Origin: Pseudomonadota bacterium
Lineage (GTDB): Bacteria; Pseudomonadota; Gammaproteobacteria; Ga0077536
Direction of reading: 5' to 3'
Assembly: GCA_016719885.1 (NCBI GenBank)
Contig: JADJYF010000008.1
Coordinates: forward strand, 162,200 to 226,199
DNA length: 64,000 nt
Each line of letters starts with the position of its first letter. The first letter of the stretch is position 1. The translations under genes and the position numbers were made by a program. This document shows, piece by piece, positions 28,272 through 61,235 of this stretch. The notes under the pieces were generated by a model. It was given only the letters and a program-made list of their open reading frames with translations, ran no database searches and was not told where the DNA came from.

Positions 28272-28787
28272 TTACATGTGGGTATCGTGCAGGGCGCCGC
28301 CGTCCAGCACCGCCATGTCGGCGGTGATGCCGCTGAAGGGATAGACCTTGCCACCGAATTCGCCGGCGAATTTCTCGGCGTCGCCCTGGCGGGCGAAGGA
28401 CGCGATGGTCGGTCCCATGGAACCGCGGCGCTTGCTGCCCACCACGTAGAAGGCCTGCTTGGCGTCTATCCAGTGGCCCTTGGGTTCATCCCAGTCGGCC
28501 GCGCCCATGTCCTGCACGTAGAGCGCGCGCACGGCACGCACCTGCTCGGGATTGAGATACAGGTGGAACATCTCGACCGTGTCGCAGAAGAAGTCCGGCG
28601 CATCCTGGCCGGCGTACTGCATCTGCGCCTTGGGGCCGGGGAAATCGGCGAGCAACATGCCGTCCAGCGCGCAGCTGGTGCCGGCCTCGGTGTCGACCGC
28701 CGCCTGGGTGCTCGACGGCGTCGACTCGCCGCAGGCGCCGAGCGCAAGCGCGGCCAGCAGCAGGCCGTGACGGGCGAACTTGTTCAT
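28272..28787 (-). CDS. nosL: NosL copper-chaperone lipoprotein
   Basis: Lipobox LALGAC; position after nosY; 4-nt overlap with nosY stop. Confidence 0.8.
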   Translation of the reverse strand: MNKFARHGLLLAALALGACGESTPSSTQAAVDTEAGTSCALDGMLLADFPGPKAQMQYAGQDAPDFFCDTVEMFHLYLNPEQVRAVRALYVQDMGAADWDEPKGHWIDAKQAFYVVGSKRRGSMGPTIASFARQGDAEKFAGEFGGKVYPFSGITADMAVLDGGALHDTHM

Positions 28788-31816: not shown

Positions 31817-31823
31817 GCGTGGT

Positions 31824-34442
31824 TCATAGCGACAGGATGCCCATCGCCTTCAACACCAGGAACAGGCTGGCGCCGATCAGGAGGTTCTTGAAACCGACAT
31901 AGCACAGCATGTCCATGATGCTCGCCACGCGGTAATGGCGCTGCCACCACGGTCCGTCCTTCACGTAACGCTTGCCACCGAGACGCACCATCACTTCGAA
32001 CACGCTCCAGGTGAACCACCAGGCCATCACCACCACCGCCTCGATACGACCGGCGGCCGCCAGCACCCATACCAGGGTCGCGCCCACCGCCAGCGCGAAG
32101 CCGGCTGCCTGCAGCGTGCGCTGCGCCTGGAAGCCCGTGCGGCTCCACGGCCACAGGTGATCGATGAGTTCATTCCACAGCCATTGCATCACACCCGCCG
32201 GCACCGCGTAAGGCGGCGTGACCGGATCGGTGGGCAGACGCGGATCGACCGTGCTGCGCGGCGCGTGGCCGCGCGCGACCGGCGCCTCGTAGGGTACGGA
32301 CTTGATCGGTATGTAATAGCCGTCGGCGCCTATCGGCGTGAGTTCCAGGCCGGCCTTGGTGCGGCGCTTACGCTCGTGCACCAAGGGCGGACAGGTGCCC
32401 GCGTCGGTATAGAGAATCATGCAGTCCAGGCAATGCAGGCATTCGCGATGATCGATGCGCCCGTCGCTGTCGATGGCCAGCGAGCCGCAGCCCTTGGCGC
32501 AGGCATGGCAGCTCGCGCATTCCTGCTTGCGCTTCAAGCCGTACCAGCGAAACGTCGACGGCATGGCGAGCGCCGCGCCCAGCGGGCACAGGTATTTGCA
32601 GAACGGCCGCTCGATGAATATCGACAGGCCGAGCAGCACCGCCACGAACAGGGTGTAGGGCCAGCTGCGGTTGAACATGCCGACCAGGAAAGTGGTCTTG
32701 AACGGCTCGATCTCGGCCAGAGTCTCGGCCAGCGACATGGAGAACATCGACACCGTCAGCAGCGCGAAGAATATCCCGTACTTCACCCATTTCAGACGAT
32801 TGTGCCAGCGCATCGGCAAATGGCCCTGCCAGCGCCCGAGGCCGAGCTTGCCACTGACTTTATAGATGAGTTCCGACATCGAGCCGAACGGGCACAGCCA
32901 GCCGCAGAACAAGCCGCGGCCCCAGATGAACACCGTGACGATGATGAAGATCCAGAAAATGAAAATGAACGGGTCGCTTAAGAACAGCTCCCAGGTCCAC
33001 TTGAACAGCAGCGAGTGAAACCAGGTCAGCACCTGGGTGATGGACGGCTGCGCGAGCAGGCCGAAGCCGACCGCGCCTATGCTGATGAGCCAGGCCGCGT
33101 ACTTGAAGCCGTTGACCGGCCACTTGTTGTGGTGGGTGGAACGGCGCGTGAGCTTGTCGCGCAACGCATACACCACCGCCACCATCACCAGCAGCGCCGT
33201 GAAGGCGACGATTTCGACGATGCGCGATTTCCAGATCTTGAGCCAGGTCGGATCGGGCAGCAGGATGCGCGGCCGGCCGTCTTGCAGGGTCGCGGCGGGC
33301 AACCAGTACTCGGCGGTGAAATTGGCGAAGCTGCGCGCGCCGCTTTCGCGATCGACGCGATTGCCGAGAAACACCAGCTGCCAGGGATAGGCGGGCGAGA
33401 AAGCCTTGGAGCGCACGATGAACACCGCCGACTCGTCGAAGCGCGGTGCACCGGCGGCGGCTACGCCGTAGAGATTGAGATAATCGGTATCGCGAAACGT
33501 GAAGGCATCGCTGCCCTGGCGCACCTGCACGCGATCATAGATGCCGCCACGCACGAAGCCCGAACCCTTGAACGATTCCTGGCCGGCGGTGCGGATCACG
33601 AACAGCGCGGTCTCGTCGTCCTTGAGCCGCGCCATGAGCGCCTTGTAACCCGCCTCGCCGAGAACCGCGCGGCCGATGTCCGGCTGGTTGAGACAGCCGA
33701 ACCACAACTCGATGAAGGGCGTCGGGCCCGCCGGCAGGCCGACCGCTTCGGGCGCCACCACCAACTGCCGCACGCTGCCCTCGGCGACCAGGCTTGCCCA
33801 ATCGAGATTGCGCGCGCGGTCGATGTACCGCGGCGGCTCGCGCACGGTCGGCGCGAGAATGCCGACCTGGCGCGCCACCGCCTGCGCCGAGGCCATCATC
33901 ACCTGGTTCTCGGCGATGACGGTGACGGTGGCGCCGGAGATCGCGTCGAGGCCGACATGGCCGTTGTCATCGCTGACGCCACCGACCTGGATGTCGTCGC
34001 CGACGTGCTTGCCGAGATACTGATCGAGGAACTTGGTGAGCGCACCCTCCGGAATGCCGAGCAGGAGGATGGGCTCGGAATGCTTCAAGACCTTGGTGCC
34101 GACGAAGCGGCCGCCCTTGTCCAGGCCAATCAGAGTGACCACCGGCTTGCCCGAATAGGCCGGCGTATCGGTGACGTCGGTCGACAGCACGACGTAGCCC
34201 AGCAGCGCCGGCTTGCCGTCCTGTTCGCCATAGGCTTCGACGTAGGGCGGGTTGCCCTTGCGCTCGGAAAAACTCATGGCGCCGGGAAATACCTCGGCGC
34301 AGGGCGCGTAATCGCAGAGCTTGGGCGAGCTGTGCAGTTCTTCCGGCAGCTTGGCGTCGTAGGCGTTGGCGAGCGCCAGCGGCGACGCGCACACCAGGAG
34401 CAGCGCCAGCCAGCAGCGAACCAGGGTGAAAGAAGGCGTCAT
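31824..34442 (-). CDS. nosR: NosR membrane flavo-FeS protein, with an unusually long C-terminal membrane extension
   Basis: Signal/FMN-bind region; CPFG-type motifs GWLCPFGSMSE and CKYLCPLGAAL; ferredoxin clusters CASCHACAKGC and CLHCLDC; GGAGG SD before ATG 34442; ~190 aa follow the last Cys cluster. Confidence 0.88.
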   Translation of the reverse strand: MTPSFTLVRCWLALLLVCASPLALANAYDAKLPEELHSSPKLCDYAPCAEVFPGAMSFSERKGNPPYVEAYGEQDGKPALLGYVVLSTDVTDTPAYSGKPVVTLIGLDKGGRFVGTKVLKHSEPILLLGIPEGALTKFLDQYLGKHVGDDIQVGGVSDDNGHVGLDAISGATVTVIAENQVMMASAQAVARQVGILAPTVREPPRYIDRARNLDWASLVAEGSVRQLVVAPEAVGLPAGPTPFIELWFGCLNQPDIGRAVLGEAGYKALMARLKDDETALFVIRTAGQESFKGSGFVRGGIYDRVQVRQGSDAFTFRDTDYLNLYGVAAAGAPRFDESAVFIVRSKAFSPAYPWQLVFLGNRVDRESGARSFANFTAEYWLPAATLQDGRPRILLPDPTWLKIWKSRIVEIVAFTALLVMVAVVYALRDKLTRRSTHHNKWPVNGFKYAAWLISIGAVGFGLLAQPSITQVLTWFHSLLFKWTWELFLSDPFIFIFWIFIIVTVFIWGRGLFCGWLCPFGSMSELIYKVSGKLGLGRWQGHLPMRWHNRLKWVKYGIFFALLTVSMFSMSLAETLAEIEPFKTTFLVGMFNRSWPYTLFVAVLLGLSIFIERPFCKYLCPLGAALAMPSTFRWYGLKRKQECASCHACAKGCGSLAIDSDGRIDHRECLHCLDCMILYTDAGTCPPLVHERKRRTKAGLELTPIGADGYYIPIKSVPYEAPVARGHAPRSTVDPRLPTDPVTPPYAVPAGVMQWLWNELIDHLWPWSRTGFQAQRTLQAAGFALAVGATLVWVLAAAGRIEAVVVMAWWFTWSVFEVMVRLGGKRYVKDGPWWQRHYRVASIMDMLCYVGFKNLLIGASLFLVLKAMGILSL

Positions 34443-34566
34443 GGCCTTACCTCCAGACATCTTCATGGAGCAGGCGTGTTGCGGCCCGGGCGGTGAGTCA
34501 ATTCCGATCCCGAACACCGACGCCACGCGATCCCCGTGTCATCCTGTGCGGGTTGGGTGAAGTATA

Positions 34567-34595
34567 GAGCTGGTCTCACAATGTGAGACCAGCTC
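34567..34595 (-). terminator. 13-bp-stem hairpin between nosZ and nosR (GAGCTGGTCTCAC-AAT-GTGAGACCAGCTC)
   Basis: Perfect inverted repeat read directly; no clear U-tract. Confidence 0.5.
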
Positions 34596-34603
34596 CATGC
34601 AGC

Positions 34604-34632
34604 CTGGCCCCGTCGCCAAGCGACGGGGCCAG
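34604..34632 (-). terminator. 12-bp-stem GC-rich hairpin 9 nt downstream of the nosZ stop (CTGGCCCCGTCG-CCAAG-CGACGGGGCCAG)
   Basis: Perfect inverted repeat read directly; no clear U-tract. Confidence 0.5.
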
Positions 34633-34640
34633 GGCGTTGG

Positions 34641-36608
34641 TCAGGCCTCGACCAGCATGCGGCCGCGCATTTCCAGGTGCAACGCATGGCAGAAATGCGT
34701 GCAGTAGTACCAGTACACACCGGCTTTCTCGACGGTGAAGGTGACCGACGCGGTCTCCTGGGGATTCACCACGAAATTGATGTTGTGTTTCGGCAATGCG
34801 AAGCCATGGGACAGATCCTCGACCTTGTCGAGGTTGGTAAGGATGACGGTCACCTCGTCGCCCACTTTCACCTTGAACTCGCGAGGCGTGAAGGTCGGCG
34901 CCTGGGAGGCAATGCGCACCGTCACCTTCTTGCCGTCGCGCGTCACGCCGGTGTCCTTCGCGTCCTTCACCGCCAGCGGGAAGTCGTCGATGTTGTAGAC
35001 CTGCTTGGGCTGCAGCAGCTCGCGCTTGAAGATGATGAAGTCATGGGGTTCCGGACGCACCGGGTGATCCGACACCAGCACCATCTTGTCGCCGGAGATA
35101 TCGATCAACTGCTCGTTCTCGGGATGCATGGGGCCGACCGGCAGGTAACGGTCCTTGGAGAACTTGCAGCCCACCGCCAGCCACTTGCCGTCGGCGGCCA
35201 TGGTCTCGGACTGCGAGGCGTTGATGTGGCCCGGCTGGTACTGCACGTCGACGCGGTCAATCACGTATTGCGACTTGTTGTCGCCGCCATGGAACTTGAT
35301 CGCCGCATCGACATTCCATTTCACCACCTGGCTGTCGAGGAACAGGGTGGTATAGGCGTTGCCGCGCCCGTCGAAAGCGGTGTGCAAGGGCCCGAGACCC
35401 AGTTCCACTTCGGCGACGATGGACTTGTCGAGGCTGTCGAGCTTGCCGTCGAACCAGTCCAGCACCTTGGCCAGTTCGATCACCGTGGCGGTGGGCGAGA
35501 GCTTGCCGGCGCAGATGAAGTACTTGCCGTCCGGCGAGGCATTCACGCCGTGGGGATTCTTCGGCACCGACACGCGGCCGACCAGCGCGGTCTTGGGATC
35601 GGCATTGGCTGCCAGCGTGCCGTCCACCACCGGTACCTTGGAGTCGCCGATGGTGGTGAACTTGCCGTCCTTGACCGCCTGCTCGATGCGCGCGACATGG
35701 AAGAACAGGCAGCCGTCACGCTCGGCGGACATCATGTCCTCGTAGTGCGCGCCGCCTTCGGTGTTGTACTGGTTGGTGGCGGCCAGCTTGCCGTCGTAGG
35801 AACTCGCGGTGAGATCGCAGTTGCCGTCGATCAGCACCTGCCAGCGCACGTCCATGGTTTCGGCGTCTACGCAGGTGAACAGCGAACGGTACTTGTCGGT
35901 GGCCTCGAGGTCCTGGCCGTCATTGGCCTGGGGAATGGCGAACTCGGCGCCGCAGAACACGCGCGTGGTGTAGTTGATGGCCGGGTCCACCGGGTCGCGC
36001 TTGTCGGGAAAGATGCCGTGAAAACCCTGGATATTGGGCAGCTCGGTGATCTTGTCACAGATGAAGTAGTCGAGCCGGATGCGCGCGATACGGCTGTTGA
36101 TCTTGTCGTTGATCCAGGCGTAGCGGCCGTCGTAATTGCCGTCCTTGTAGGACGCATGCACGTGGTGGGTGTCGCCGACCGTGTAACGCAGGTGACCATC
36201 GGGCTTGGTGCCCATGATCTTCTTCGACTCGTTGGTGATGCCCCAGCCGATGAGAGCGTCGGGCGTGAAGCACGGCACGCGCAGGATCTCGCGGCCGGAC
36301 GGCAGCCCCAGCACGCGCAGGTCGCCGGTGTGGCCACCGCTCCACAGGCCGTAATAGGTGTCGAGTTCGCCGGGCTTGAGATGGGTGGCGGCGGCCGGGT
36401 CAGCGGTCGGCGCGGCCGCCGCGGCGGGTGCCGGTGCGGCTGCGCTGGCGGCGGGCGCCGCGGCGGGGGCGGCGGCCTCCTGCTTGGAACAGGCGGCCAT
36501 GCCCAAGGCCATACCGGTGCCGGCCACACCGGCGGCGGCGGCGGTATTCAGGAAGCGACGACGATTGACGTCCAATTGGTCGCCCGGTTCATGCCCCTTG
36601 TTCTTCAT
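34641..36608 (-). CDS. nosZ: Nitrous-oxide reductase (clade-I, Tat-dependent)
   Basis: Tat motif NRRRFL; PGELDTYYGLWSGGH; CuZ His ligands GDTHHVH; CuA motif CTHFCHALHLEM; AGGAG SD before ATG 36608. Confidence 0.95.
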   Translation of the reverse strand: MKNKGHEPGDQLDVNRRRFLNTAAAAGVAGTGMALGMAACSKQEAAAPAAAPAASAAAPAPAAAAAPTADPAAATHLKPGELDTYYGLWSGGHTGDLRVLGLPSGREILRVPCFTPDALIGWGITNESKKIMGTKPDGHLRYTVGDTHHVHASYKDGNYDGRYAWINDKINSRIARIRLDYFICDKITELPNIQGFHGIFPDKRDPVDPAINYTTRVFCGAEFAIPQANDGQDLEATDKYRSLFTCVDAETMDVRWQVLIDGNCDLTASSYDGKLAATNQYNTEGGAHYEDMMSAERDGCLFFHVARIEQAVKDGKFTTIGDSKVPVVDGTLAANADPKTALVGRVSVPKNPHGVNASPDGKYFICAGKLSPTATVIELAKVLDWFDGKLDSLDKSIVAEVELGLGPLHTAFDGRGNAYTTLFLDSQVVKWNVDAAIKFHGGDNKSQYVIDRVDVQYQPGHINASQSETMAADGKWLAVGCKFSKDRYLPVGPMHPENEQLIDISGDKMVLVSDHPVRPEPHDFIIFKRELLQPKQVYNIDDFPLAVKDAKDTGVTRDGKKVTVRIASQAPTFTPREFKVKVGDEVTVILTNLDKVEDLSHGFALPKHNINFVVNPQETASVTFTVEKAGVYWYYCTHFCHALHLEMRGRMLVEA

Positions 36609-36765
36609 CTTTTTTACTCCTCTTGCGTCGCGGAGTGCGCCGCGGTCCGAGACGGCGTCGCACAGAATTGGGACGATGCATGCCGGGGTGTCTGTCGCTC
36701 CCCGCGGCTCGTCACTGCGACATTTTGTCGCAGCAGTAATGTCGGCCGCGAGACCTGAAATCGCA

Positions 36766-36779
36766 TTGATCGATATCAA
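36766..36779. promoter_or_regulatory. Perfect FNR/DNR/NnrR-type box TTGAT-CGAT-ATCAA in the nosZ / nosX divergent region
   Basis: Exact palindrome read directly, centred ~164 nt from the nosZ ATG and ~166 nt from the nosX ATG. Confidence 0.7.
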
Positions 36780-36937
36780 AGCCCTATCCACAAAAATTTT
36801 GAGGATTAATTCCAGTTCCTCGAAATTCAAACCACGAAAATCTCATGGGCTGGGTAGCGAATCGGCGCGGGCGTGGGCATGGCGTGGACCGCGCGGGACA
36901 ATGGCGCGGCCGGCAGGGGCCTGTAACGAGATTGAAG

Positions 36938-37948
36938 ATGTCGAGAGCGATGTTGGTGAGACTGGTGTCGCTGGCGTGGCTGGCGCTTGCGATGGCCCAG
37001 GCGGCGACGGCCGATGCGCTGCGTCTGCGCGGCGAGACCATGGGCACCACCTGGCAGGTGAGCGTGGTCACGGCGACGCCGGCGGCGAGCGATCTCAGGC
37101 GGCGTATCGACGCACTGCTCGAACGCATCAACGGGCAGATGTCGACCTACCGGCCGCAGTCCGAGCTGTCGCTTTTGAATGCCAACCCGAGTCGCGACTG
37201 GCTGCCGGTGTCGGGCGAGCTCTTTACCGTGTTGCAGGCGGCGCGACAGGTCAGCATCGCCACCGATGGCGCCTTCGACATCACGGTCGGGCCGTTGGTG
37301 AACCTGTGGGGTTTCGGTGCGCAGGCTCGCGTTGATGCGCCGCCCTCAACGGGCGCCTTGCGCGACACCCAAGCCCGCGTCGGCTACCGGCAGCTTGAAC
37401 TGGCGGACGCGCCGCCGCGGCTACGCAAGGCGCGCGGCGACGTCTATCTCGACCTGTCGGCCATCGCCAAGGGTTACGCGGTCGACCAGGTCGCTGAACT
37501 GCTCGAGCGCGCCGGCATCACGGACTACCTGGTCGACATCGGTGGTGAGGTGCGCGCCCGCGGTCATAACGCCGAGGGCCGGCCGTGGCAGGTGGGCGTG
37601 GCGCTACCGCGCGCCGATGTCGACCGTATCGAGCGAGTGCTGCCCCTTACCGATACCGCGCTCGCCACCTCGGGCGATTACCGCAACTTTTTCGAATACC
37701 AGGGCCGTCGCTACTCCCACGAAATCGACCCCGCGAGCGGCCAGCCGGTCAGCAACGACGTGGCCTCGGTGAGCGTGCTGCACGCCTCGTGCATGCTGGC
37801 CGATGCCTATGCGACGGCTTTCATGGTGCTGGGCGCCGAGCGCGCGCTCGCCGTCGCCGCCCGGCACAAGCTCGAAGTGCTGTTCCTGCTGCGCGATGGC
37901 GAGGGATTTCGCGCCCGCGCCAGCGCCGGTTTTCCGGCGCGACGCTGA
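36938..37948 (+). CDS. nosX: ApbE-family FAD:protein FMN transferase (NosX)
   Basis: Signal peptide MSRAMLVRLVSLAWLALAMAQA; ApbE motifs AKGYAVDQV, TSGDY, HEIDPASG; adjacent to the nos cluster. Confidence 0.85.
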   Translation: MSRAMLVRLVSLAWLALAMAQAATADALRLRGETMGTTWQVSVVTATPAASDLRRRIDALLERINGQMSTYRPQSELSLLNANPSRDWLPVSGELFTVLQAARQVSIATDGAFDITVGPLVNLWGFGAQARVDAPPSTGALRDTQARVGYRQLELADAPPRLRKARGDVYLDLSAIAKGYAVDQVAELLERAGITDYLVDIGGEVRARGHNAEGRPWQVGVALPRADVDRIERVLPLTDTALATSGDYRNFFEYQGRRYSHEIDPASGQPVSNDVASVSVLHASCMLADAYATAFMVLGAERALAVAARHKLEVLFLLRDGEGFRARASAGFPARR

Positions 37949-37992: not shown

Positions 37993-38652
37993 TTAGCCCT
38001 CGGTGCGCCGCCTGCGCGCGTACACCAGACCCAGCAGGGCTGCGCCCGTCAACCCCAGGCTGGTCGGTTCGGGAACCGCCGTACCATTGACTTCGAACGT
38101 CACTTCGGAAATGCCCAGGCAATTGCATGAGTCGAGGTTGGAGAACGAATTGATATGGAAGCGGACATAACGCGCGTTCGTATCGTTCAGATCCAATACG
38201 GAGACGGGAACGTCCGCATTGGGGTCATCGATAGTCGCCATGGCGAAGGAACCTACCAGCGTATCGACGCTGAAATCCGCGACCATGGACGTAAAGACGT
38301 CCATCGAAGTGATACCACGGTAGCTGCCATTGAACAGGCCGATGGCATTGACCAGGTAGGAGCCACCGAGATCGAAATCGATGTCGCCGGGTGCGCTTAA
38401 ACCGAAGTACTGCCCACCGCAGTTATTGCAGCCCGCGCTCGGGTTGCCCGCGACATAGGCGGAGAAGTCGGTGACCCCGGATACAAACGGTGTCACGTTC
38501 GACTGGTTCATCATGTTGTCCTGCGGGAACCCGCCGAAGGGATCCGCACCGAAGGAATTGTTGACGATGGCAGTGGGGCTCAGGATCACGCCAGCGCTGG
38601 CGACGCCGGAAAAAGCTACCGCGAACAACGCGCTCAAGAATCGACTTTTCAT
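37993..38652 (-). CDS. Secreted PEP-CTERM-anchored protein (discoidin/F5-8-C-like body)
   Basis: Signal peptide; C-terminal VPEPTSLGLTGAALLGLVYARRRR sorting signal. Confidence 0.8.
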   Translation of the reverse strand: MKSRFLSALFAVAFSGVASAGVILSPTAIVNNSFGADPFGGFPQDNMMNQSNVTPFVSGVTDFSAYVAGNPSAGCNNCGGQYFGLSAPGDIDFDLGGSYLVNAIGLFNGSYRGITSMDVFTSMVADFSVDTLVGSFAMATIDDPNADVPVSVLDLNDTNARYVRFHINSFSNLDSCNCLGISEVTFEVNGTAVPEPTSLGLTGAALLGLVYARRRRTEG

Positions 38653-38953
38653 CTGCTGGGCTCCTTGCACTCAGGTTGGATGGTTGCATGTCTCGCAGCA
38701 GGATGCTCTGCGAGCGATGCAACGACCGAGCAAGGAACATGCCCGAAAAAATCTGCCACGCGAATTCAGGCGCTTACCGAGCGTCGGGACGTACCAGCCG
38801 TCACCGTGCTCGCCGCCGTGTAAATTTCTCAAGACAATTACACCACCCCGATGGTGTGGGTTTTCTGAGTTTCTTTACAGACCAGGGGCATCATGGCGAC
38901 CGGTTTGATGGCCTCCCGCCAGCCTCGAAAGGCGGCGACCCGCCTCCAGACCG

Positions 38954-39976
38954 TCAACCGGAAGCCGCGAAGAAGCGATCGAAGTACAGCTGTTCGGACG
39001 GCAAGCCCTTGGCGCTCAGCAGGCGGCTGACCGTTTCGCACATCGGCGGCGCGCCACACAGGTAGGCGTCGAGGTCGCGCGCGTTGTCGACCGCGTGCTG
39101 CACGGCGCGCGTGACGGTGCCGCTCGCGCCGCTCCATGCATCGCCGTCCTCGAGACCATCGAGGGTCGGCACGAAATCGAGTTTCACCCCCATCCCTGCG
39201 CGCAGTTCGTCGAGGTAGGGCAGGTCCTGTGGACGCCGCGCACCATAGAAAAGCGAAAAACTGCGCGGATCCTGGCGCTCGGCGGCGTCGCGCAGCATGG
39301 CCATGATCGGCGCGATACCGGAGCCTATCGCGCACAGCAACACCGGGCGCGTGCCGGCGCGCAGATAGCTCGCGCCGAACGGACCGCGCACCGCGATGGC
39401 CTGGCCGGCCTGCATGCGCTCGAGACCGCCGGAGAACGCGCCGCCCTCGATGCGCTTCATGACGAAACTCAGGCGTCGCGCCGACGACGGCGGTGAGGCC
39501 ATCGAGTAGCTGCGCCACACGGTGCCGTCGGCGCCGTCGAGACCGAGTTCGACGAATTGCCCGGCGTAGAATTCGAGCGGCGCCGGCAAGGCGACGTCGA
39601 GCTGCCACAGTTCGGGTGTGAGCTGCGTGACCGCCGCCACTTCGGCGTCGAAACGGCCGGGCGTCAACAACGGTAAGGCCCGCGCATCGGGCAGACGATG
39701 ATCGCGGATCAAGACGTCGCTCAAGGGACGCGCCCGGCACAACAGCGCCCAACCGGCGTCCTGTTCGTTCTCCGGCAGGGCGTAGGCGGTCACCTCGCCG
39801 AGATCGACCTCGCCGTCCTCCACCAGGTATTTGCAGGTCGAACAGCGGCCGTGGCGGCAGCCATAGGAAAGCTCGATACCGTGGCGCAGCGCGCCATCCA
39901 AAATCGTCTCGTGCTCGCCGCAGTTGAAGGTCTGGCCGCCGGGCGCGAGCTCGACGACGTATTCCACATCACTCAT
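38954..39976 (-). CDS. Monooxygenase NADH:ferredoxin-type reductase component ([2Fe-2S] + FAD/NAD domains)
   Basis: Plant-type cluster CRHGRCSTC...C; RSYSMAS FAD motif; GSGIAP NAD motif. Confidence 0.9.
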   Translation of the reverse strand: MSDVEYVVELAPGGQTFNCGEHETILDGALRHGIELSYGCRHGRCSTCKYLVEDGEVDLGEVTAYALPENEQDAGWALLCRARPLSDVLIRDHRLPDARALPLLTPGRFDAEVAAVTQLTPELWQLDVALPAPLEFYAGQFVELGLDGADGTVWRSYSMASPPSSARRLSFVMKRIEGGAFSGGLERMQAGQAIAVRGPFGASYLRAGTRPVLLCAIGSGIAPIMAMLRDAAERQDPRSFSLFYGARRPQDLPYLDELRAGMGVKLDFVPTLDGLEDGDAWSGASGTVTRAVQHAVDNARDLDAYLCGAPPMCETVSRLLSAKGLPSEQLYFDRFFAASG

Positions 39977-40004
39977 GAAAGTTGCAACCGACTGGGGCGG
40001 GCGT

Positions 40005-40319
40005 TCAGGGCTCGCGATGGATCTGCGTGACGTCGCTGGTCAGGATGAAGCGGTCCGGCTCGGTCATCACGCGTCCGACATAGGTGGACATGATGACCAG
40101 CCACTGCGACATGCTGAGCTCGGTGCCGAGCTCCTCGGCGACGGCCTTCAAATCGACCTCGATGCGGCCGGTCGGCGAGGTGATCTTCCAGAACGTGCCG
40201 TGATCGGCCACCTGGAGGGAAGGATCGTCGCGCTCCAGTACGTCGAGCGTGGCCTGCGCCTCGGGCGAGCCCTGCATGAGCACCAGCGACACATCGATGC
40301 GACCGCTGACCGCGTTCAT
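40005..40319 (-). CDS. MmoB/DmpM-family monooxygenase coupling (effector) protein
   Basis: 104 aa; size, position between hydroxylase beta and reductase, and family-like sequence. Confidence 0.75.
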   Translation of the reverse strand: MNAVSGRIDVSLVLMQGSPEAQATLDVLERDDPSLQVADHGTFWKITSPTGRIEVDLKAVAEELGTELSMSQWLVIMSTYVGRVMTEPDRFILTSDVTQIHREP

Positions 40320-41401
40320 GCCTGGCCGTCCAGTCGGCTCGCGAAGCCGAGTTCACGGATGATGGCGGCGCAGGCGGCACGCGCCGCGTCGCGGGAGGCG
40401 GCGAAACTCAGCGCGGGCTGCGGCGCGGCCTCGAACACCGGCGCCAACGCCACGACCGCGGCGTCGGCGCGCGCGCTCCAGTCGTCGAGCCAGCCCTGCA
40501 CCACGCCGCGATTATGCGCGGCATGGGCGCTGCCCTCGGCCGTGATCATGCGCACGAAGGCCTGGCTCGCCGCCAGGTTGCGGCGTCGATCGCGCTCGGC
40601 CGTCATGACGATATGCGGGGCGACGGCGTCGTCGTTGTGCATGGCGCCACGGCGGACGAGATCGCTGACCGCCACCTGTTGCAGCAGCGGGCCGACCACC
40701 AGGTTCAAACCCACCAGCAGCTCCGCCCAGTCAGTGGTGGCCATGATCTCCTCGGCCAGCTTGCGCGCCGGCTGGTAGGCCGGCGCGTTCATCCACTGCT
40801 GTTTACCGAGCGCGTCATCGACCGCCGCGTTGACGTTCTCGAGCTCGACCAGGTACACGACCACGTCCTGCGCGTGGCGCAGGTGATCGAAACTCTGGAA
40901 GCACAACAAATTGCCGAGCGTGTCGGACAAGGCCTCGCGCTGCGCCGGCGCCAGCGAACGGAAAATGGCGTATTCGAAGAACGACCACGCGCGGTAATGA
41001 CCGCACAGCATGTTCTTCACCCAGCCGGCCGACAGCATCGCGAGCGTGCCGTCCAGCGCCGCGTCCTCGGTCATGCGCGCGATGGAGGTTTCCTGCTGTT
41101 CCTGGTGACGCACATAGGTGCGCTGCCATTGCTGGGCCGGATCGCGGAACGCGTACCAGTTGTCGTGCCGGAGCTGCGTCGATGCCTGGTCCCACAGGGT
41201 GCGGCCGTCGGGCCGCAGCACGTACCACTCGGTGTCGTCGAGATTGGCGCCGACCTTGTCGAAGCCCCACGCGTCGGGCTGCTGATGCACCGTCAGCGCT
41301 TCGTACTCGGTCAAGCGCCGCGCGGCGGGCTTGATGAAGGTGAATTCGCGCGCCAGCTTGCCGGCGGCGCTGGCGGTGGTGTTGGCGTTGCTCGTGCTCA
41401 T
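40316..41401 (-). CDS. Soluble di-iron monooxygenase hydroxylase beta (small) subunit
   Basis: 361 aa; ATGA overlap with alpha stop; RRLTEYEALTVHQQP..., FRDP..WQRTYV blocks as in PrmC/ThmB-like subunits. Confidence 0.8.
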   Translation of the reverse strand: MSTSNANTTASAAGKLAREFTFIKPAARRLTEYEALTVHQQPDAWGFDKVGANLDDTEWYVLRPDGRTLWDQASTQLRHDNWYAFRDPAQQWQRTYVRHQEQQETSIARMTEDAALDGTLAMLSAGWVKNMLCGHYRAWSFFEYAIFRSLAPAQREALSDTLGNLLCFQSFDHLRHAQDVVVYLVELENVNAAVDDALGKQQWMNAPAYQPARKLAEEIMATTDWAELLVGLNLVVGPLLQQVAVSDLVRRGAMHNDDAVAPHIVMTAERDRRRNLAASQAFVRMITAEGSAHAAHNRGVVQGWLDDWSARADAAVVALAPVFEAAPQPALSFAASRDAARAACAAIIRELGFASRLDGQA

Positions 41402-42939
41402 TGCAGCACCACCACCGGCCCTTGCGAGGGCATGTCCTTCACCGGATCGCTGATGCAGAACTGCTGGCGGCGGATGTCGTCCAGCGTCCAGCGCCTGTCG
41501 GCATGCAGATGGGGCTGCGCCAGCAGGGTCTTGCCGTCGTTGCGGACGAGACCGCATTTCTCGATGAATTCGGCCAGCGAATAGCCATCGAAATGTTCGT
41601 CCCAGGTACGGCTTTGCGCATAGCGATGGGGCTCGAAAGCGAACGTGCGCTCACAGCCGTCGGAGCAGAACGCGTGCTTGCGTCCGCCGAAATCCTTGAT
41701 GCGCGCGGTGCTGATGTCGGGGCGCGGAAACACGCACGGCATGTGACACACGCGGCACAGCGGCGGCATGCTCGCGAACAGCGACAAGGGGATCTGGCCG
41801 TTGGCCGGATCGCTCATCTCGGCATAGGCCTCCCAGAACTTGCCGTAGCGGTCGTACCAGCCGGGATACTTCAATTCGAACCAGTCGAAGTCGCGCGCGT
41901 TCAGGGGATCGATGCGGATGAACTGCATCGGCCAGGTGGCGGCCAGCATCATCATGGCGGTGTGGCCCACCCACTTCACGCGCTCCTTGGCTTCCGCCCA
42001 GCCGCGCGGCAGCGCAACGCCGAAAGGTTCCAGGCGCTCGATATAACCGCCGCCCCAGTCGTTGCCCACCCACTCGGTCCAGGCTTCGAGGTAGGAGCCG
42101 CCGCGGTTTTCCTGGAAGTAGTCGTAGACCGCCGACACGAAGGTGTCGAGGAAGGTATGTTGCCGCCAGAACGCCGCGTCGAAATCACGCTGCAGCCGCG
42201 GCAGGTTGTCCGGCACCGAGGCAATCGCCGCCAGTGTCGAATAGCCATTGGCCATGTGCCGCGCCTCGTCCGACTGCACCGACAGGAAGGTGGTGGGCGT
42301 GGCCTGGTCGCCGTTGGCGGCCGCCACTTCCGTCAGGGTCACGAACAAGGGATTGGTATAGGCGGTTTCGGCCACCACCTGCAGGTTCAGGGCGCCTTCT
42401 ATCGGGTTGCCAGCGAAGAAACCGTCGAAGGCCGCGCGGCTCGCGCGCATCAGGAAATTGGTGTTGCGCAGCTTGAAACCGCGCTCGAAGCCTTCGGCGT
42501 CAACCGCGTGCTTGGCGAGATAGCGCACCAGGTGCGCTTCCTGGTTCACATGCCGCACTTCGTCGATCATCTGCGCGAGATAGCCCTGGCGGAGTTCCGC
42601 GTTGTCGACCGCGTCGACCAATTGGCCGGTGCACTTCATGGCCGCGTATTCCGCGTAGCAGGTCAGCGGCAGGGCAATCTTCAACACTTCGGTCCAGCGC
42701 TCGGAGGCCTTGGCCGGCATCTTGGCGCGCGCCATCACGTCGCTCATGGCGCCGTACTGGCGGTCGTCCTTGTCACGCTCCATGGAGCAGTAATCGCGCA
42801 CCAGGTGTCGGAAAGGATCGCTGGTCTTTGTAGGAATCTTGTACGGCATGTCGTAGCGCGATGCCGGTGCTTGGTAGGAAGCCTGCCAGTCGAAGTCCTT
42901 GACGCGGTCGTGGGCCTTGACGAAATCAGCGCTCTTCAT
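41398..42939 (-). CDS. Soluble di-iron monooxygenase hydroxylase alpha (large) subunit, PrmA/ThmA-like
   Basis: Di-iron ligand motifs QMIDEVRH and VQSDEARH; VVAETAYTNPLFV; FDWFELKYPGWYDRYGKFWE; Cys-rich C-terminal CRVCHMPC...FCSDGCERTF. Confidence 0.9.
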   Translation of the reverse strand: MKSADFVKAHDRVKDFDWQASYQAPASRYDMPYKIPTKTSDPFRHLVRDYCSMERDKDDRQYGAMSDVMARAKMPAKASERWTEVLKIALPLTCYAEYAAMKCTGQLVDAVDNAELRQGYLAQMIDEVRHVNQEAHLVRYLAKHAVDAEGFERGFKLRNTNFLMRASRAAFDGFFAGNPIEGALNLQVVAETAYTNPLFVTLTEVAAANGDQATPTTFLSVQSDEARHMANGYSTLAAIASVPDNLPRLQRDFDAAFWRQHTFLDTFVSAVYDYFQENRGGSYLEAWTEWVGNDWGGGYIERLEPFGVALPRGWAEAKERVKWVGHTAMMMLAATWPMQFIRIDPLNARDFDWFELKYPGWYDRYGKFWEAYAEMSDPANGQIPLSLFASMPPLCRVCHMPCVFPRPDISTARIKDFGGRKHAFCSDGCERTFAFEPHRYAQSRTWDEHFDGYSLAEFIEKCGLVRNDGKTLLAQPHLHADRRWTLDDIRRQQFCISDPVKDMPSQGPVVVLQ

Positions 42940-43041
42940 GTCTTCCTCCCCAGGAAATGATTACCGCGAAATGTGTAGGGCAAAGGTAACCGACCGGCGC
43001 TCCGCCGCCCAGCGTTTTTCCGTGCTGCATTGCGGCCCCCT

Positions 43042-43941
43042 TTATTCCCGCTTGGCCTCCATGGCGCGGATCAGCGCGCGCGCTTCGTCACCCTCGGGAA
43101 TCGGACGCCCCGAGTCGCGCCATTCGACCGCCGCCTTGAAACCTTCGCTCTGCGCATAGCGGCGGAACCACAGGCCTTCCGGGTTGTGGCGGGTGATACC
43201 GTCGAACACCGTGGCCAGGCTCTGGCTCTGCTCGAGGCCCATGGTGAGCAGCATCTGGTTGACCACCAGCTTGTGCATGGCGAGATGGCCGGCCGGCACG
43301 CCCGCGATACGCATCGCGAGCCGCAGCGTGGCGCTTTCGAGCTCGGCGGCCGGCACCGCGAGATTGGCCAGTCCCCAGGCCTCGGCGCGGCGTCCGTCGA
43401 TGGTGTCGCCGGTGAACATCATCTGCTTGGCGCGCGCGGCGCCGACGCGATAGGCCCACATGGCGGTGGTCGGGCAACCCCACACCCGCGTCGGCATGTA
43501 GCCGATGCGCGCGTCCTCGGCCATCACCAACAGGTCGCAGCACAGGGCGATGTCGCTGCCGCCCGCCACCGCGTGGCCATGCACCTTGGCGATGGTCGGC
43601 TTGGGACTCTTCCACAGCGTCATGAAGTCGTCGGTGTTGCGCTTCATGTAGCCGTAGTCCTGCATCGGGTCCCAGGGATGGGCTTCCTGCTTGCACGGAT
43701 GCTCGCCCGCGCTCTCACCGAACAGTTCGAGGTCATAGCCACCGCAGAAACCCTTGCCCGCGCCTTCCACCACGATCACGTGCACCGCCTCGACGCCGTT
43801 GGCCCATTCGACCGCCTGGCGAATTTCGCGCGGGGTGTGGTCGTTGATGGCGTTGTAGCGCTCGGGACGGTTCAGGAGCAGGCGCGCGATGCGCGGCTGT
43901 TGCGGGTCCTGGGCGATACGCAGGGTACTGAGTTCGAGCAT
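43042..43941 (-). CDS. Enoyl-CoA hydratase/isomerase (crotonase) family protein
   Basis: [12 protein letters not shown] and [10 protein letters not shown] oxyanion-hole regions; AGGAGG SD before ATG 43941. The rest of the 779-aa track ORF is antisense shadow. Confidence 0.85.
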
Positions 43942-43968
43942 GGGAGGCCTCCTGGATAGGTGAAGGAT

Positions 43969-44047
43969 TGTAGGTGCGAATTCATTCGCACATTCAAGCC
44001 AAGGCCGTGCCGCGGTGATCGGCATGAATGTCAGGCTGAAGCCTGAC
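43969..44047. repeat. REP-B (43969-43993, inverted) and REP-A core (44030-44047, inverted)
   Basis: TGTAGGTGCGAATTCATTCGCACAT and GTCAGGCTGAAGCCTGAC read directly. Confidence 0.9.
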
Positions 44048-44157
44048 ATTTGATGGGTCGAACGAGTTCGCGAGTACAGGGCCCAGCCTTTATCATGCCG
44101 CCACCGCCGCCGCGACCCGCGCGGCCCCGGCGTGACACGAATCCAGCGGAGCAAACC

Positions 44158-45315
44158 ATGAAACTCGAAGGTATACGCGTGCTCGACCTGTCGCTCTTCC
44201 TGCCCGGCCCGGTGCTGACGCAGATGATGGCCGACCACGGCGCGGAAGTGATCAAGCTCGAACCCATCGGCGGCGGCGAACCGAACCGCGAGATCGGCCC
44301 CAAGCGCGACGGCATGACGGTCTATTTCGCCAACACCCACCGCAACAAGAAAAGCATCCAGCTGAATCTCAAGACCGAGCAAGGGCGCGCCATCGCGCTG
44401 GACCTCGCCGCCCGTTGCGACGTCATGATCGAAGCATTCAGGCCCGGCGTCGCCGCGCGTCTCGGCGTCGGCTACGAGGCGGTGCGCGCACGTAATCCCG
44501 GCATCGTCTATTGCTCGATGTCGGCCTGGGGCCAGGACGGCCCGTACGTGCACCGGCCCGCGCACGACTTGACCTGCGAAGCCATCGCCGGCGTGCTCAG
44601 CATCAACCTCGGCCCCGATCGCCGCCCCGCCATTCCGGGCGTGGCCGGCGCCGACATGTTGTCGTCGATGATGAGTTTGTCGGCGATCCTGATGGCGCTG
44701 TTGCGTCGCAAGGACACCGGTCAAGGCGACTACATCGACGTTGCCATGGCCGACAGTCTCATCGCCGCGCTCGCCAACAACTTCGGCACCACCTTCGCCA
44801 ACAAACAACCGCCGGACCTCGGCAGCGAACGCGCGCTCGGCGGCTACGCGATGTACGGCATCTACGAAACCAGCGACGGGCGTCACGTGGTGCTGGGCGG
44901 CTCGGAATACCATTTCGCCGAGGCGGTGCTGAACAAGCTCGGTCGCCCCGATCTGCTCGATGCCTGCAAGACCCCGCCCGGCCCCGGCCAGAACCCCGCC
45001 AAGGAGTTCCTGCGCGAGACCTTCCGCAGCCACACCATGGCGCACTGGGAAAAGGAATTCGCCAACGTCGACGCCGCGTTTGCCGGCGTGAAGAACCTGC
45101 GCGAGGCCTGCGACGACGTACAGATCCGCCATCGCCAGATGATCGTCGAGGACGAGCGCGGCTGGGAACACGTCGGCCTGCCGATGAAGTTCAAGCACGA
45201 ACCGGGGCAATTGAAATTCCAATTCGCCAAGCTCGGTGAACACACCGAACAAGTGCTGGAAAGTCTCGGGCATGACGGCGCGGCGCGGGCGGCATTGAAG
45301 GCGGCGGGGGTCTAG
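44158..45315 (+). CDS. Family III CoA-transferase (CaiB/BaiF)
   Basis: [18 protein letters not shown]...[12 protein letters not shown]...VMIEAFRPG family hallmarks. Confidence 0.88.
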
Positions 45316-45343: not shown

Positions 45344-45425
45344 TGCGAATTCAGTCTGACCCACAATGAATAGCGCGGCAAGGCGCTGGTATTGGCGATC
45401 GAATGTGCGAATGAATTCGCACCCA
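45344..45425. repeat. Chimeric REP remnant (45344-45366) and REP-B (45402-45425)
   Basis: TGCGAATTCAGTCTGACCCACAA and AATGTGCGAATGAATTCGCACCCA read directly. Confidence 0.85.
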
Positions 45426-48076: not shown

Positions 48077-48613
48077 TCAGGTGCGCAGCGGCGCGCGGGT
48101 CTCGAGTTCGAGCATGACCAGTGGGATCTCGCGCGTGGTACGGGCCTGGTACTCGACTTGCACCGCTTGCTCGGCCGTCACGCGCCGCCACCAGCGCGCG
48201 CGTTCCTCGCCAGCCAACGGGCGCGCCACGGCGCGAGTGCGGAACGCACCGATTTCGACTTCGCAGTCCGGCGCCGCGAGCAGGTTCAAATACCAGACCG
48301 GATGCTGCGGCAGCCCGCCCTTGGACGCGACGATCACTATCTCGTCGCCGTGCCGGTAGTACTGCAGGATGGAATTCAACTTGCGCCCGGATTTGCGGCC
48401 GAGGTGGTGCAGCAGCAGGCACCGTACCGGACCGCCGGGCACGCCGATGACAATCGGGTCCCAAAGATGGGCCGCCTCCGGGTCACGCGCATAGAGGGCG
48501 TGATGGGCGGCGATTTCACGCCGCACGGCGTCCGGCAGCCGGGCCGCGCCGCTCTCGATTCGATGTTGGTCTGCGCTCACGGCGGGTCCTCGAATGACGG
48601 CTGGATGGTGCAA
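48077..48613 (-). CDS. DUF385 / deazaflavin-dependent nitroreductase-family protein
   Basis: HLGRKSGRKLNSILQYYRHGDEIVIVASKGG...HPVWYLNL...R.IP split-barrel family pattern. Confidence 0.7.
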   Translation of the reverse strand: MHHPAVIRGPAVSADQHRIESGAARLPDAVRREIAAHHALYARDPEAAHLWDPIVIGVPGGPVRCLLLHHLGRKSGRKLNSILQYYRHGDEIVIVASKGGLPQHPVWYLNLLAAPDCEVEIGAFRTRAVARPLAGEERARWWRRVTAEQAVQVEYQARTTREIPLVMLELETRAPLRT

Positions 48614-48682
48614 TGCCGGGCCATGCTACCACTCACCTTCCGTGGCATTGCCAGGGCGTCGGCGCTTGGCCATCATCCGGGC

Positions 48683-49714
48683 ATGAACACTCATCATGGT
48701 CGCGCCCGTCGCCTGGGCCTCATGCTGTGGCCGGCGCCCGGTCTCGGCGCCGGCTTCGAACGCGGCCGCTGGGCCGCGAGCCACGGCTACGACGACCTGT
48801 GGCTGGCCGACGCCGAAGGTCTCGAAGATCCGCTGACCTTGGCGGCGGCCCTGGGCGTGACCTGCGACAAGGTGCGCCTCGCGACCGGCATCGTTCCGGT
48901 GTTCAACCGCCCGCCGGCCCTGCTCGCGACCGCGGTGGTGGCGGCCGAGGCGCGCGCGCCGGGACGCCTGGTGCTGGGTCTCGGCGCCTCGACACCGAAC
49001 ATGATTGAACGCTGGTACGGCCTGCCCTACGCCAAGCCGCTGACCCGCGTGCGTGAGACCATCGCCCTGCTGCGCCAGATCCTGAACGGCGAGAAGACCG
49101 CCTTCGATGGCGCAACGCTGCGCAGTCACGGTTTTCAATTGAAATCGCTGCCCACGCAGCCGGTGCCGATCGTGCTCGGCGCCATCGGCGGCAAGATGCT
49201 GGAACTCGCCGGTGAAGTGGCCGACGGCGTGCTGCTCAACGATTTCACACCACCGGACCGTCTCGCCTACGCGCTGGAACGTCTCGATGTCGGCGCCAAG
49301 CGTGGCGGTCGGCGCGTGGAAGATCTCGAGATCATCAAGCGTCGCGCGCTGTACCTGACCGACGATGCCGCCGGCGGCATGGAATATTTCCGCCAGCACC
49401 TCGCGTTCTACGCGTCCGCCGCGCAATACCAGAACGTCATGATTGAACTCGGCTACGGCCACGCCGTCGAGGAAGCGCGCGCCGGCTATGCGACACGCGA
49501 TCGGCGCCGCATCACCGCCGCCATCAGCGACGACATCGTCGAGCGCATCTTCAGCTTCGGCAACGAGGCGCGTTGCCGCGCGTTGGTGGCGGCCGACTAC
49601 GCGGCCGGCGTCGATACCGTCATCATCAGTCCCCAGGGCGGCACCATGGAGAGCTTCGCGCGCGGCGCCGAGGCCTTCCTGCCATCGGTGTTCGACCGCC
49701 ACGCGCGCGCGTGA
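48683..49714 (+). CDS. LLM-class (luciferase-like) flavin/F420-dependent oxidoreductase
   Basis: LGLMLWP...GYDDLWLADAEG...RLATGIVPVFNRPP...LGLGAS TIM-barrel LLM pattern; start at MNTHHG (48683). Confidence 0.8.
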   Translation: MNTHHGRARRLGLMLWPAPGLGAGFERGRWAASHGYDDLWLADAEGLEDPLTLAAALGVTCDKVRLATGIVPVFNRPPALLATAVVAAEARAPGRLVLGLGASTPNMIERWYGLPYAKPLTRVRETIALLRQILNGEKTAFDGATLRSHGFQLKSLPTQPVPIVLGAIGGKMLELAGEVADGVLLNDFTPPDRLAYALERLDVGAKRGGRRVEDLEIIKRRALYLTDDAAGGMEYFRQHLAFYASAAQYQNVMIELGYGHAVEEARAGYATRDRRRITAAISDDIVERIFSFGNEARCRALVAADYAAGVDTVIISPQGGTMESFARGAEAFLPSVFDRHARA

Positions 49715-49718
49715 TGCC

Positions 49719-50624
49719 TCACGCCGATTTCGGCGAGGGATAGGCGTTGCGCGGATTGGGCTTGTCGTCCGCCGTGCCCTGCGAGTAATCGCCGAACAGG
49801 CGATCGCGCTCGGCGACCGCCGCCGGCACGCCGGCCTTCTCCGCGTAGTCGATGAACGCCAGCGCCTCGGGTGTATTGCGCATCAGGCCATCGAGCACTG
49901 AGCCCAACAGCTGCGTCGAGCGCAGGCCCATGTTCTCGTAGGCCTGGTTGACCACCAGCTTCATGGCGGCGAGCTGCGACAGCGGTATCGACGTCAGCTC
50001 GCGCGCGAGCTTGTAGGCCTCGCCTTCCAGTTGCTCGAAGGGCACGGCGCGATTGACCAAGCCACATTGCACCGCCTCGGTGCCCGACAGCGGCCGCCCG
50101 GTCAGCGCCAGTTCCTTGGCCTTGGCGAGGCCCAGGCGGTGCACCCACATGCCGGCGTGATGACAGCCCCACATGCGCGAATACGGCGTGCCGATGCGCG
50201 CGTCCTCGCTCATCAGCACGATGTCCGCGCACAAAGCCATTTCACTGCCACCGCCCAGCGCCCAACCGTGCACCATGGCGATGACGGGCTTGGGGCTGTG
50301 CCACAGGCTCATGAATTTCGGCACCCAGCCGGTGACCGGTGAACAGGTGGCGATGAAATCCTTGCCGGCGTCCCAGGCGCCGCCGGTATTGATGGTGTCG
50401 TCCCAGTGATGGAAGCCGCCGCTGAAATTGAAGCCCGCGCAGAACGCACGGCCGGCGCCGCGCAGCACGATGACCTTGACCTTGGCATCGCGCACCGCGC
50501 ATGCCACCGCCGCCTCGAGTTCATCGGTCATGGGCGGCACGATGGTGTTCAGGTCGTCGGGCCGGTTCAAGGTGATGGTCGCAATCGCGTCTTCGACGCC
50601 GTAGACCAGGGTTTGGTAGGACAT
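49719..50624 (-). CDS. Enoyl-CoA hydratase/isomerase (crotonase) family protein, paralogue of 43042..43941
   Basis: RGAGRAFCAGFN and HGWALGGGSE; collinear similarity to the other crotonase including the insertion before the xxLWxSPKP block. Confidence 0.85.
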   Translation of the reverse strand: MSYQTLVYGVEDAIATITLNRPDDLNTIVPPMTDELEAAVACAVRDAKVKVIVLRGAGRAFCAGFNFSGGFHHWDDTINTGGAWDAGKDFIATCSPVTGWVPKFMSLWHSPKPVIAMVHGWALGGGSEMALCADIVLMSEDARIGTPYSRMWGCHHAGMWVHRLGLAKAKELALTGRPLSGTEAVQCGLVNRAVPFEQLEGEAYKLARELTSIPLSQLAAMKLVVNQAYENMGLRSTQLLGSVLDGLMRNTPEALAFIDYAEKAGVPAAVAERDRLFGDYSQGTADDKPNPRNAYPSPKSA

Positions 50625-50762
50625 GGTCGGCACTCCCCGTGCGGGCGATGGGTAATCAGTGGGGCGATTATAAAGACCGGCACGCGACAACGACGACTTG
50701 CGTACGCCCATCGCGGCGTCGTTCAAGCTAGACTGCGCCCATCCAAATCACCGCGTGAACCC

Positions 50763-61210: not shown

Positions 61211-61235
61211 ATGTGCGAATGAATTCGCACACCCA
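61211..61235. repeat. REP-B element (ATGTGCGAATGAATTCGCACACCCA)
   Basis: Read directly. Confidence 0.85.

Follow-up and report, generated by a model that had tools for sequence, protein, structure and literature searches.

The 64-kb window analysed here (the whole stretch of 64,000 nucleotides from contig JADJYF010000008.1) carries an operon coding for a soluble di-iron monooxygenase (SDIMO), composed of hydroxylase subunits alpha and beta, a coupling protein and a reductase. The locus is best read as an intact and transcribed SDIMO operon of the group-6 type, whose gene order is normal for its group and whose crotonase neighbour is specific to its lineage; a probability of about 0.75 is attached to this reading. 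The operon is an uncharacterised member of a known enzyme family, and its host is an uncultured gammaproteobacterium of wastewater systems. As a genomic oddity the locus fails, the gene order being the usual one and the crotonase link being local to one lineage. Its modest interest is its place in an unexplored, GroEL-less proteobacterial branch of group 6 that has no characterised member and that the analysis shows to be intact, kept under purifying selection and expressed as RNA in communities from wastewater and biofilms.

The initial annotation of this DNA, made from its letters alone, had proposed a four-component SDIMO without a gamma subunit. Domain matches were found for all four components and no gamma homologue is present. 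Both di-iron motifs described for the 513-residue alpha subunit stand: the ligands E97, E127, H130, E191, E225 and H228 (E...EXXH twice) align with E114, E144/H147, E209 and E243/H246 of MmoX, and the active-site threonine T195 aligns with MmoX T213. MmoX is also the best relative of alpha among solved structures, over its full length (E 6e-113). The peptide blocks quoted for alpha, VVAETAYTNPLFV, FDWFELKYPGWY and CRVCHMPC...FCSDGC, are all read in the translation. The reading frames of the four SDIMO genes are intact and the ratio of nonsynonymous to synonymous substitution rates (dN/dS) against three relatives is 0.03–0.26 for all of them (0.03–0.18 for alpha), showing that the operon is under purifying selection.

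Assignment to SDIMO group 6 and gene order

All four components rank group 6 highest by identity. A tblastn search of a plasmid collection gave 57–58% identity of alpha to the homologues carried by a plasmid of Mycobacterium dioxanotrophicus PH-06, plasmid pMYCCH.01 of Mycolicibacterium chubuense NBB4, a plasmid of Rhodococcus sp. ZPP and Mycobacterium sp. ELW1, which are treated as group-6 hosts (PMC11057499; PMC11825192). Alpha identity is 45% to EtnC of Nocardioides JS614 (group 4), 40% to SmoX of ZPP, 38–40% to group 3 and 33–36% to proteins of the Thm/Prm type (group 5). The beta subunit is 40–41% identical to group 6 against 25–35% to other groups; the corresponding values are 40–43% for the coupling protein and 43–45% for the reductase, with 25–35% again for the other groups. 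The kinship to PrmA and ThmA suggested by the initial annotation does not hold in view of these alpha identities.

The features of the other groups are lacking. An alpha identity of roughly 40% is the cut-off for group 5 in PMC11825192, a value that the window protein does not reach. The group-5 systems PrmABCD, MimABCD and ThmADBC resemble the window operon in having four components without gamma, and ThmA has a motif of four cysteines like that of the window alpha; they differ in their order (alpha, reductase, beta, coupling protein) and in the GroEL-like chaperonin that usually accompanies them. The second position of the reductase in Prm, Thm and Mim clusters, correctly given in the initial annotation, is seen in the records of Methylocella tundrae and R. 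ruber YYL, while in the window the reductase comes last. Group 3, namely the MmoXYBZDC soluble methane monooxygenase (sMMO) and Smo, shares with the window the fold, the di-iron ligands and an operon start of alpha, beta and coupling protein. However, group 3 carries a gamma subunit, as had been stated for methane/butane-type clusters, and sMMO and the butane monooxygenase (BMO) have in addition MmoD; both are absent from the window, whose operon has no room for a gamma gene and whose alpha falls short of the about 50% identity needed for membership. The group-4 EtnABCD and group-7 ZmoABCD systems also have four components without gamma, but their order is beta, coupling protein, alpha, reductase (record of Nocardioides JS614 for group 4; section 3.7 of PMC11825192 for group 7), whereas alpha comes first in the window.

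The cysteine-rich tail of alpha (C395, C398, C425 and C429), which had been taken as a mark of groups 5 and 6, does not discriminate between groups. The four-cysteine motif is kept in 88 of 91 aligned SDIMO alpha subunits, among them those of the phenol, ethene, tetrahydrofuran (THF) and Smo types; the only ones to lack it are MmoX, a single group-5 sequence and XamoA. Its loss separates MmoX from the window alpha. The comparison with group 6, represented by SmoABCD of Rhodococcus aetherivorans BCP1 and the PH-06 and NBB4 enzymes (propane-1-monooxygenases), shows the same gene order without gamma, like di-iron ligands, a like four-cysteine motif and a nearly identical pocket, in which only two positions carry a residue other than that of the references.

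The order alpha, beta, coupling protein, reductase had been considered non-canonical. It is the normal order of group 6, because the group-6 literature, the annotated records and nearly all relatives with an alpha identity of at least 55% share it. Section 3.6 of PMC11825192 and the legend of Fig. 2 in PMC11057499 give this order, with no gamma subunit, for the group, and the paper on BCP1 smoABCD describes the same one. In the annotated clusters of PH-06 and NBB4, the genes for alpha, beta, MmoB/DmpM and reductase come in this order, with alcohol dehydrogenase and/or GroEL after them. Relatives were collected by a scan of one genome per species, which yielded 79 loci; among the relatives fetched, almost all complete operons in which alpha reaches 55% identity or more to the window alpha have the alpha-beta-coupling-reductase order, in Gammaproteobacteria, Binatia/Deltaproteobacteria, Myxococcota, Chloroflexota, Dormiibacterota and Actinomycetota. 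Only at alpha identities of 53% or less does the order beta, coupling protein, alpha, reductase appear. The alpha-beta-coupling-reductase order is the rule for the lineage of the window. The alpha subunit essentially goes with a group of the same gene order, group 6, the outcome that the initial annotation had itself named as speaking against its proposal.

Two sets of relatives depart from this layout. A proteobacterial set (L054, L056, L057, L058 and L066), whose alpha matches the window alpha at 53% identity, has the group 4/7-like order beta, coupling protein, alpha, reductase and may be group 7 or a deep branch of group 4; some of its members carry implausible 'Enterobacteriaceae' labels as metagenome-assembled genomes (MAGs). 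In the contigs encoding protein P0004 (L089/L090, 9001–13965), and also in L004 and L005, the genes for alpha (81%), beta and coupling protein are followed by two Band_7 genes and the reductase is not adjacent. This sub-lineage has genes for 3-oxoacid CoA-transferase subunits upstream, in divergent orientation.

Phylogenetic position and accessory genes

The alpha tree was built by neighbour joining with Kimura distances from 497 trimmed columns and 100 bootstraps, using a reference set without group-7 ZmoC. The window sequence groups with those of L001–L012 and L061, all from MAGs of Gammaproteobacteria or Pseudomonadota including Panacagrimonas, with a bootstrap of 100. This clade joins a second gammaproteobacterial one (L013–L017; bootstrap 95), and both are nested in a larger clade to which Binatia, Myxococcota, Chloroflexota and a part of the Actinomycetota also belong (bootstrap 98). 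The characterised group-6 enzymes form a clade of their own (bootstrap 100). The nearest alpha subunits are all from gammaproteobacterial or other Pseudomonadota MAGs, at 73–96% identity. The closest genome is the MAG 'Gammaproteobacteria bacterium SJ420', with an alpha identity of 96% and a collinear upstream region. The same MAG carries a second group-6-like operon (L015; contig JADLGE010000016.1, 8777–14007) with an alpha 65% identical and a divergent AraC-family regulator, so the genome of the window probably also has a paralogous SDIMO operon.

The host of the window operon is a gammaproteobacterium, while the references of group 6 are Mycobacterium and Rhodococcus. To our knowledge, only a few SDIMOs of group 6 have been characterised, all of them actinobacterial, and a literature search found no paper on a characterised gammaproteobacterial enzyme of the group. 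Yang, Kertesz and Coleman 2025 (PMC11825192) describe a subgroup A of group 6 made predominantly of Pseudomonadota MAGs, for which they give no characterised enzymes, and a subgroup B of Binataceae, Chloroflexi and Deltaproteobacteria sequences. The clade of the window fits subgroup A as described there, a match by description and taxonomy only and not sequence by sequence.

A GroEL-like chaperonin and alcohol/aldehyde dehydrogenases encoded downstream are typical of actinobacterial group 6, though not strictly defining. The initial annotation rightly noted that no Rieske ferredoxin, GroEL, alcohol dehydrogenase or sigma-54 regulator adjoins the operon. Unlike the actinobacterial references, the window operon also has no adjoining aldehyde dehydrogenase or two-component regulator. 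A tblastn search of the 64-kb window with actinobacterial GroEL, alcohol dehydrogenase of the N,N-dimethyl-4-nitrosoaniline (NDMA) type, aldehyde dehydrogenase and the Smo gamma subunit gave no match, and no sigma-54 activator was found in the remaining scanned part of the window. Loci with GroEL were confined to the characterised actinobacterial group-6 clade and to the references of groups 3 and 5; the Pfam lists of related contigs agree. Because the operon has no dedicated GroEL, Pseudomonas or E. coli may express it more readily than they would the actinobacterial relatives, which would serve biocatalysis and the understanding of hydrocarbon and micropollutant turnover in treatment plants.

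An extension of this thought, put forward tentatively and with low confidence, is that the gammaproteobacterial clade forms a functionally distinct, chaperonin-independent branch of group 6, whose substrate is perhaps not a gaseous alkane and whose product perhaps enters short-chain acyl-CoA metabolism via a neighbouring crotonase, CoA-transferase, thiolase or acyl-CoA dehydrogenase. If true, this would be the first group-6 SDIMO with native folding in a proteobacterium, which would make it easy to try in heterologous expression.

Crotonase neighbour, transcription and function

The crotonase gene lies 102 nt upstream of alpha on the same strand, as first described. The adjacency is real but it is confined to the immediate lineage of the window, and the functional link that it seemed to imply is weak. 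Besides the window, it is seen only in L001, L003, L095 and L096; on the side of genomes, a close crotonase orthologue (84–94%) precedes alpha only in L001 and L003. In L002, whose alpha is 92% identical, a thiolase-like gene takes the place of the crotonase. A metagenome scan recovered 80 loci with crotonase orthologues of 77–92% identity, among which an SDIMO alpha is found only at the two closest (92% and 90%); among the 42 loci in which 1.5 kb or more of sequence follows the crotonase, 41 have no SDIMO gene. Weak crotonase matches (26–34%) near other operons were left out of the synteny count, enoyl-CoA hydratase paralogues being abundant in those genomes. The crotonase gene is widespread and highly conserved, and only the immediate lineage of the window has the operon next to it. 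Since 41 of 42 orthologue loci lack an SDIMO and L002 lacks the crotonase, the latter is taken to be of a housekeeping type and outside the core of the system, probably an upstream neighbour rather than an obligate partner. A second crotonase paralogue is encoded in the window (49719–50726, minus strand; PRK12478 type, 463 bits), 41% identical to the SDIMO-side crotonase and adjoining a gene for an F420/luciferase-like monooxygenase (LLM)-class luciferase-like oxidoreductase at 48158–49714.

Relatives with alpha identities of about 80% have no crotonase and their neighbours vary from locus to locus: 3-oxoacid CoA-transferase subunits; a set of thiolase, TetR and acyl-CoA dehydrogenase; AraC and a sigma-54 activator with a MimR_N domain; or a family III CoA-transferase, a citrate-synthase-like protein and a monooxygenase resembling flavin-containing and Baeyer–Villiger monooxygenases (FMO/BVMO-like). 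Genes of acyl-CoA metabolism recur around operons of the gammaproteobacterial clade, which would fit the ordinary route from alkane to alcohol, acid, acyl-CoA and beta-oxidation. The AraC regulator and sigma-54 activator lie upstream of the operon in the contigs encoding protein P0006 (L093/L094, 4072–7911; alpha 79%), where a transposase gene after the reductase suggests mobility of the cassette. Immediately downstream of the L002 operon, a MetE-like gene (Meth_synt_2; 14161–15192, minus strand) shares its Pfam family with a gene annotated as cobalamin-independent methionine-synthase-II-like that directly precedes etnABCD in Nocardioides JS614, a hint at epoxide handling in the L002 relative.

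The operon sequence is present in metagenomes of wastewater and activated sludge and in metatranscriptomes of wastewater and biofilm. Contigs matching alpha were found in eight RNA runs from four studies, with no mismatch in five runs, few in one and 97–98% identity in two biofilm runs. In four RNA runs of study P9 the word depth is about 4–12 on alpha and about 0–1 on the body of the crotonase gene, while a DNA run of the same study has about 3 on both. This excess of alpha in RNA, set against equal depth in DNA, speaks for a transcription of alpha that does not depend on the crotonase. The ends of RNA contigs at 42946–42964 in five runs, about 24 nt before the alpha ATG, were considered as a transcription start and discarded: DNA contigs in X13 and X4 break at 42956–42973 too.

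The 102-nt spacer between crotonase and alpha probably holds a regulatory region of the operon's own. Its block GTTACCTTTG is invariant in an alignment of the five closest loci, and the part proximal to alpha is recognisable in L002 despite the absence of the crotonase there, which is consistent with a regulation that belongs to the operon. Consensus scans found no sigma-70 consensus and no terminator in the spacer; in the region as a whole, terminator-like sites were no more numerous than in shuffled sequence. A sigma-54 -24/-12 element read by eye in GTTACCTTTG was rejected for its wrong spacing (GG-N8-GC instead of N10).

In the mechanism proposed from the family of these proteins, the reductase would draw electrons from NADH via FAD and its [2Fe-2S] cluster and pass them to the carboxylate-bridged di-iron centre in alpha of the (alpha-beta)2 hydroxylase. 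The MmoB-type effector would gate O2 activation and substrate access, and one oxygen atom would be put into a small hydrophobic substrate. By analogy with characterised group-6 enzymes, the best inference for this substrate is a short-chain (C2–C6) alkane or alkene, which would be converted to an alcohol or an epoxide. The product would then presumably enter short-chain acyl-CoA metabolism. Characterised group-6 SDIMOs oxidise propane, butane, chlorinated alkanes and 1,4-dioxane.

Several observations weigh against the reading of the locus as a group-6 operon with an incidental crotonase neighbour. The node uniting the larger clade of the window with the characterised group-6 clade has a bootstrap of only 28. 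The two deviating pocket positions are that of MmoX L110 (the 'gate'), which is Thr in the clade of the window and Val in characterised group-6 enzymes, and that of MmoX F188, Ala in the window and Val in those enzymes. The accessories typical of actinobacterial systems (GroEL, NDMA-type alcohol dehydrogenase and aldehyde dehydrogenase) are absent from the window, and the assignment of an alkane or alkene substrate leans on enzymes only 57% identical. A crotonase of the same PRK08272 subfamily, 60% identical, follows the alpha, beta and coupling protein genes in L075, a distant actinobacterial operon. The RNA contigs of the two biofilm runs X29 and X30, which are the 97–98% variants, span the crotonase-alpha junction; this may be read-through co-transcription or may come from DNA in those libraries. 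Note that Logan RNA contigs can contain DNA and that contig depth is a poor measure of expression.

The spanning contigs and the independent case of L075 would fit a single catabolic module, the reading implied by the initial annotation, in which the crotonase, the SDIMO and the divergent CoA-transferase act together, the hydroxylated product being converted to a CoA ester and handed to the crotonase, with a substrate other than the classical gaseous alkanes. The 102-nt distance on one strand with no terminator between, the conservation of the arrangement in four other loci and the thiolase, CoA-transferase and acyl-CoA dehydrogenase genes near other operons of the gammaproteobacterial clade point the same way. 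Such a module is nevertheless unlikely: nearly all crotonase orthologues with room downstream have no SDIMO beside them, L002 and all relatives at about 80% do without the crotonase, the proximal spacer motifs persist in L002, RNA depth on alpha far exceeds that on the crotonase where DNA depth is equal, and the neighbouring genes change from locus to locus. The varied genomic context of the relatives suggests mobility and, with no dedicated regulator, chaperonin or downstream dehydrogenases nearby, it could be asked whether the operon is a horizontally acquired cassette that is silent or decaying and has no current function. The intact frames, the conservation of all metal ligands, the low dN/dS and the matching RNA contigs make this very improbable.

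As for the substrate of the group-6 operon, some SDIMOs epoxidise alkenes or oxidise ketones and ethers (acetone, cyclic ethers), and a role of this kind in place of alkane hydroxylation would be compatible with the Thr at the gate, where Val or Leu stands otherwise. The PH-06 enzyme of group 6 oxidises 1,4-dioxane and THF (section 3.6 of PMC11825192), L061 of the same clade lies beside a flavin (FMO/BVMO-like) monooxygenase and a hydrolase, the P0006 relative lies beside its MimR_N activator, and the MetE-like gene of L002 is of the Pfam family of the epoxyalkane:coenzyme M transferase near etnABCD. None of these neighbours (FMO/BVMO-like monooxygenase, sigma-54 activator, MetE-like gene) is present in the window, however; the rest of the pocket hardly differs from the group-6 references, and characterised enzymes of the group mainly use propane and butane (PMC11057499; PMC11825192). 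A non-alkane role is therefore regarded as rather doubtful.

Layout of the locus and neighbouring genes

The gene calls of the SDIMO locus are all on the minus strand of the window, whose G+C content is about 66% (Table 1). The overlapping stop and start codons reported for the operon are confirmed as ATGA at the alpha/beta and beta/coupling protein junctions; the coupling protein and reductase genes do not overlap and are separated by a gap of 28 nt. Among the longest open reading frames (ORFs) listed mechanically, that of beta (413 aa) and one of 135 aa extend too far or lie in a wrong frame. The reductase has an N-terminal plant-type [2Fe-2S] domain followed by the FAD and NAD domains, and the protein resembles BenC and MmoC.

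Table 1. Features of the SDIMO locus and of the adjoining nos genes (window coordinates)
Feature	Coordinates	Strand	Details
Family III CoA-transferase, divergent	44050..45315	+	PF02515, E 4e-99; bracketed by two REP-like palindromes
Crotonase / enoyl-CoA hydratase family protein	43941..43042	-	299 aa; ECH_1; NCBIfam PRK08272 subfamily, 414 bits
Spacer between crotonase and alpha	43041..42940	-	102 nt; holds Shine-Dalgarno GGGAGGAAG and block GTTACCTTTG at 42990..42981
SDIMO hydroxylase alpha	42939..41398	-	513 aa; PF02332 (Phenol_Hydrox), E 3e-47
SDIMO hydroxylase beta	41401..40316	-	361 aa; PF02332 (Phenol_Hydrox), E 7e-54
MmoB/DmpM-type coupling (effector) protein	40319..40005	-	104 aa; PF02406 (MmoB_DmpM), E 1.8e-14
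NADH:acceptor reductase	39976..38954	-	340 aa; Fer2 PF00111, FAD_binding_6 PF00970, NAD_binding_1 PF00175
Weak terminator-like hairpin (candidate)	38840..38857	-	about 100 nt past the reductase stop; such sites are no commoner than in shuffled sequence
ApbE/NosX	36845-37948	+	
NosZ	36830-34641	-	
NosR-like Fer4_5 protein	34526-31824	-	
NosD	31816-30527	-	

The divergent gene upstream of the crotonase codes for a family III CoA-transferase, in agreement with its first description. Its Pfam match begins only at residue 39 of the ORF started at TTG 44050, so the true start is probably the ATG at 44150. Its nearest solved or curated relatives are formyl-CoA and succinate-hydroxymethylglutarate / succinate-glutarate CoA-transferases, all under the family cut-offs. 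Two perfect palindromes in the divergent region between the crotonase and CoA-transferase genes were considered as operators and rejected, being parts of a dispersed repeat resembling repetitive extragenic palindromes (REP). The palindrome GGTGCGAATTCATTCGCACA of this repeat is found five times in the window (22263–22282, 27872–27891, 43973–43992, 45404–45423 and 61212–61231; 0.01 expected) and is followed in three copies by a second palindrome, GTCAGGCTGAAGCCTGAC. The copies at 43973 and 45404 are inverted and bracket the CoA-transferase gene. Depth at 43925–44038 rises to 500–800x in DNA and RNA runs, and in one RNA contig 43994 is fused to 45373, so that the CoA-transferase is left out.

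Downstream of the reductase gene are a PEP-CTERM ORF, ApbE/NosX and a nos gene cluster, which are unrelated to the SDIMO operon. The nitrous-oxide reductase cluster (28784–37948) directly follows the operon and includes an ABC ATPase and an ABC-2 permease; its NosZ gene precedes the NosR-like gene, which is not the textbook nosRZDFYL order. The gap of 1 kb between the reductase and ApbE genes holds the PEP-CTERM ORF (225 aa; 37993–38670, minus strand), so named for a weak C-terminal sorting signal. RNA contigs cover this ORF. In the metagenome locus L096, the ApbE gene abuts the reductase gene and the segment with the 225-aa ORF is missing.

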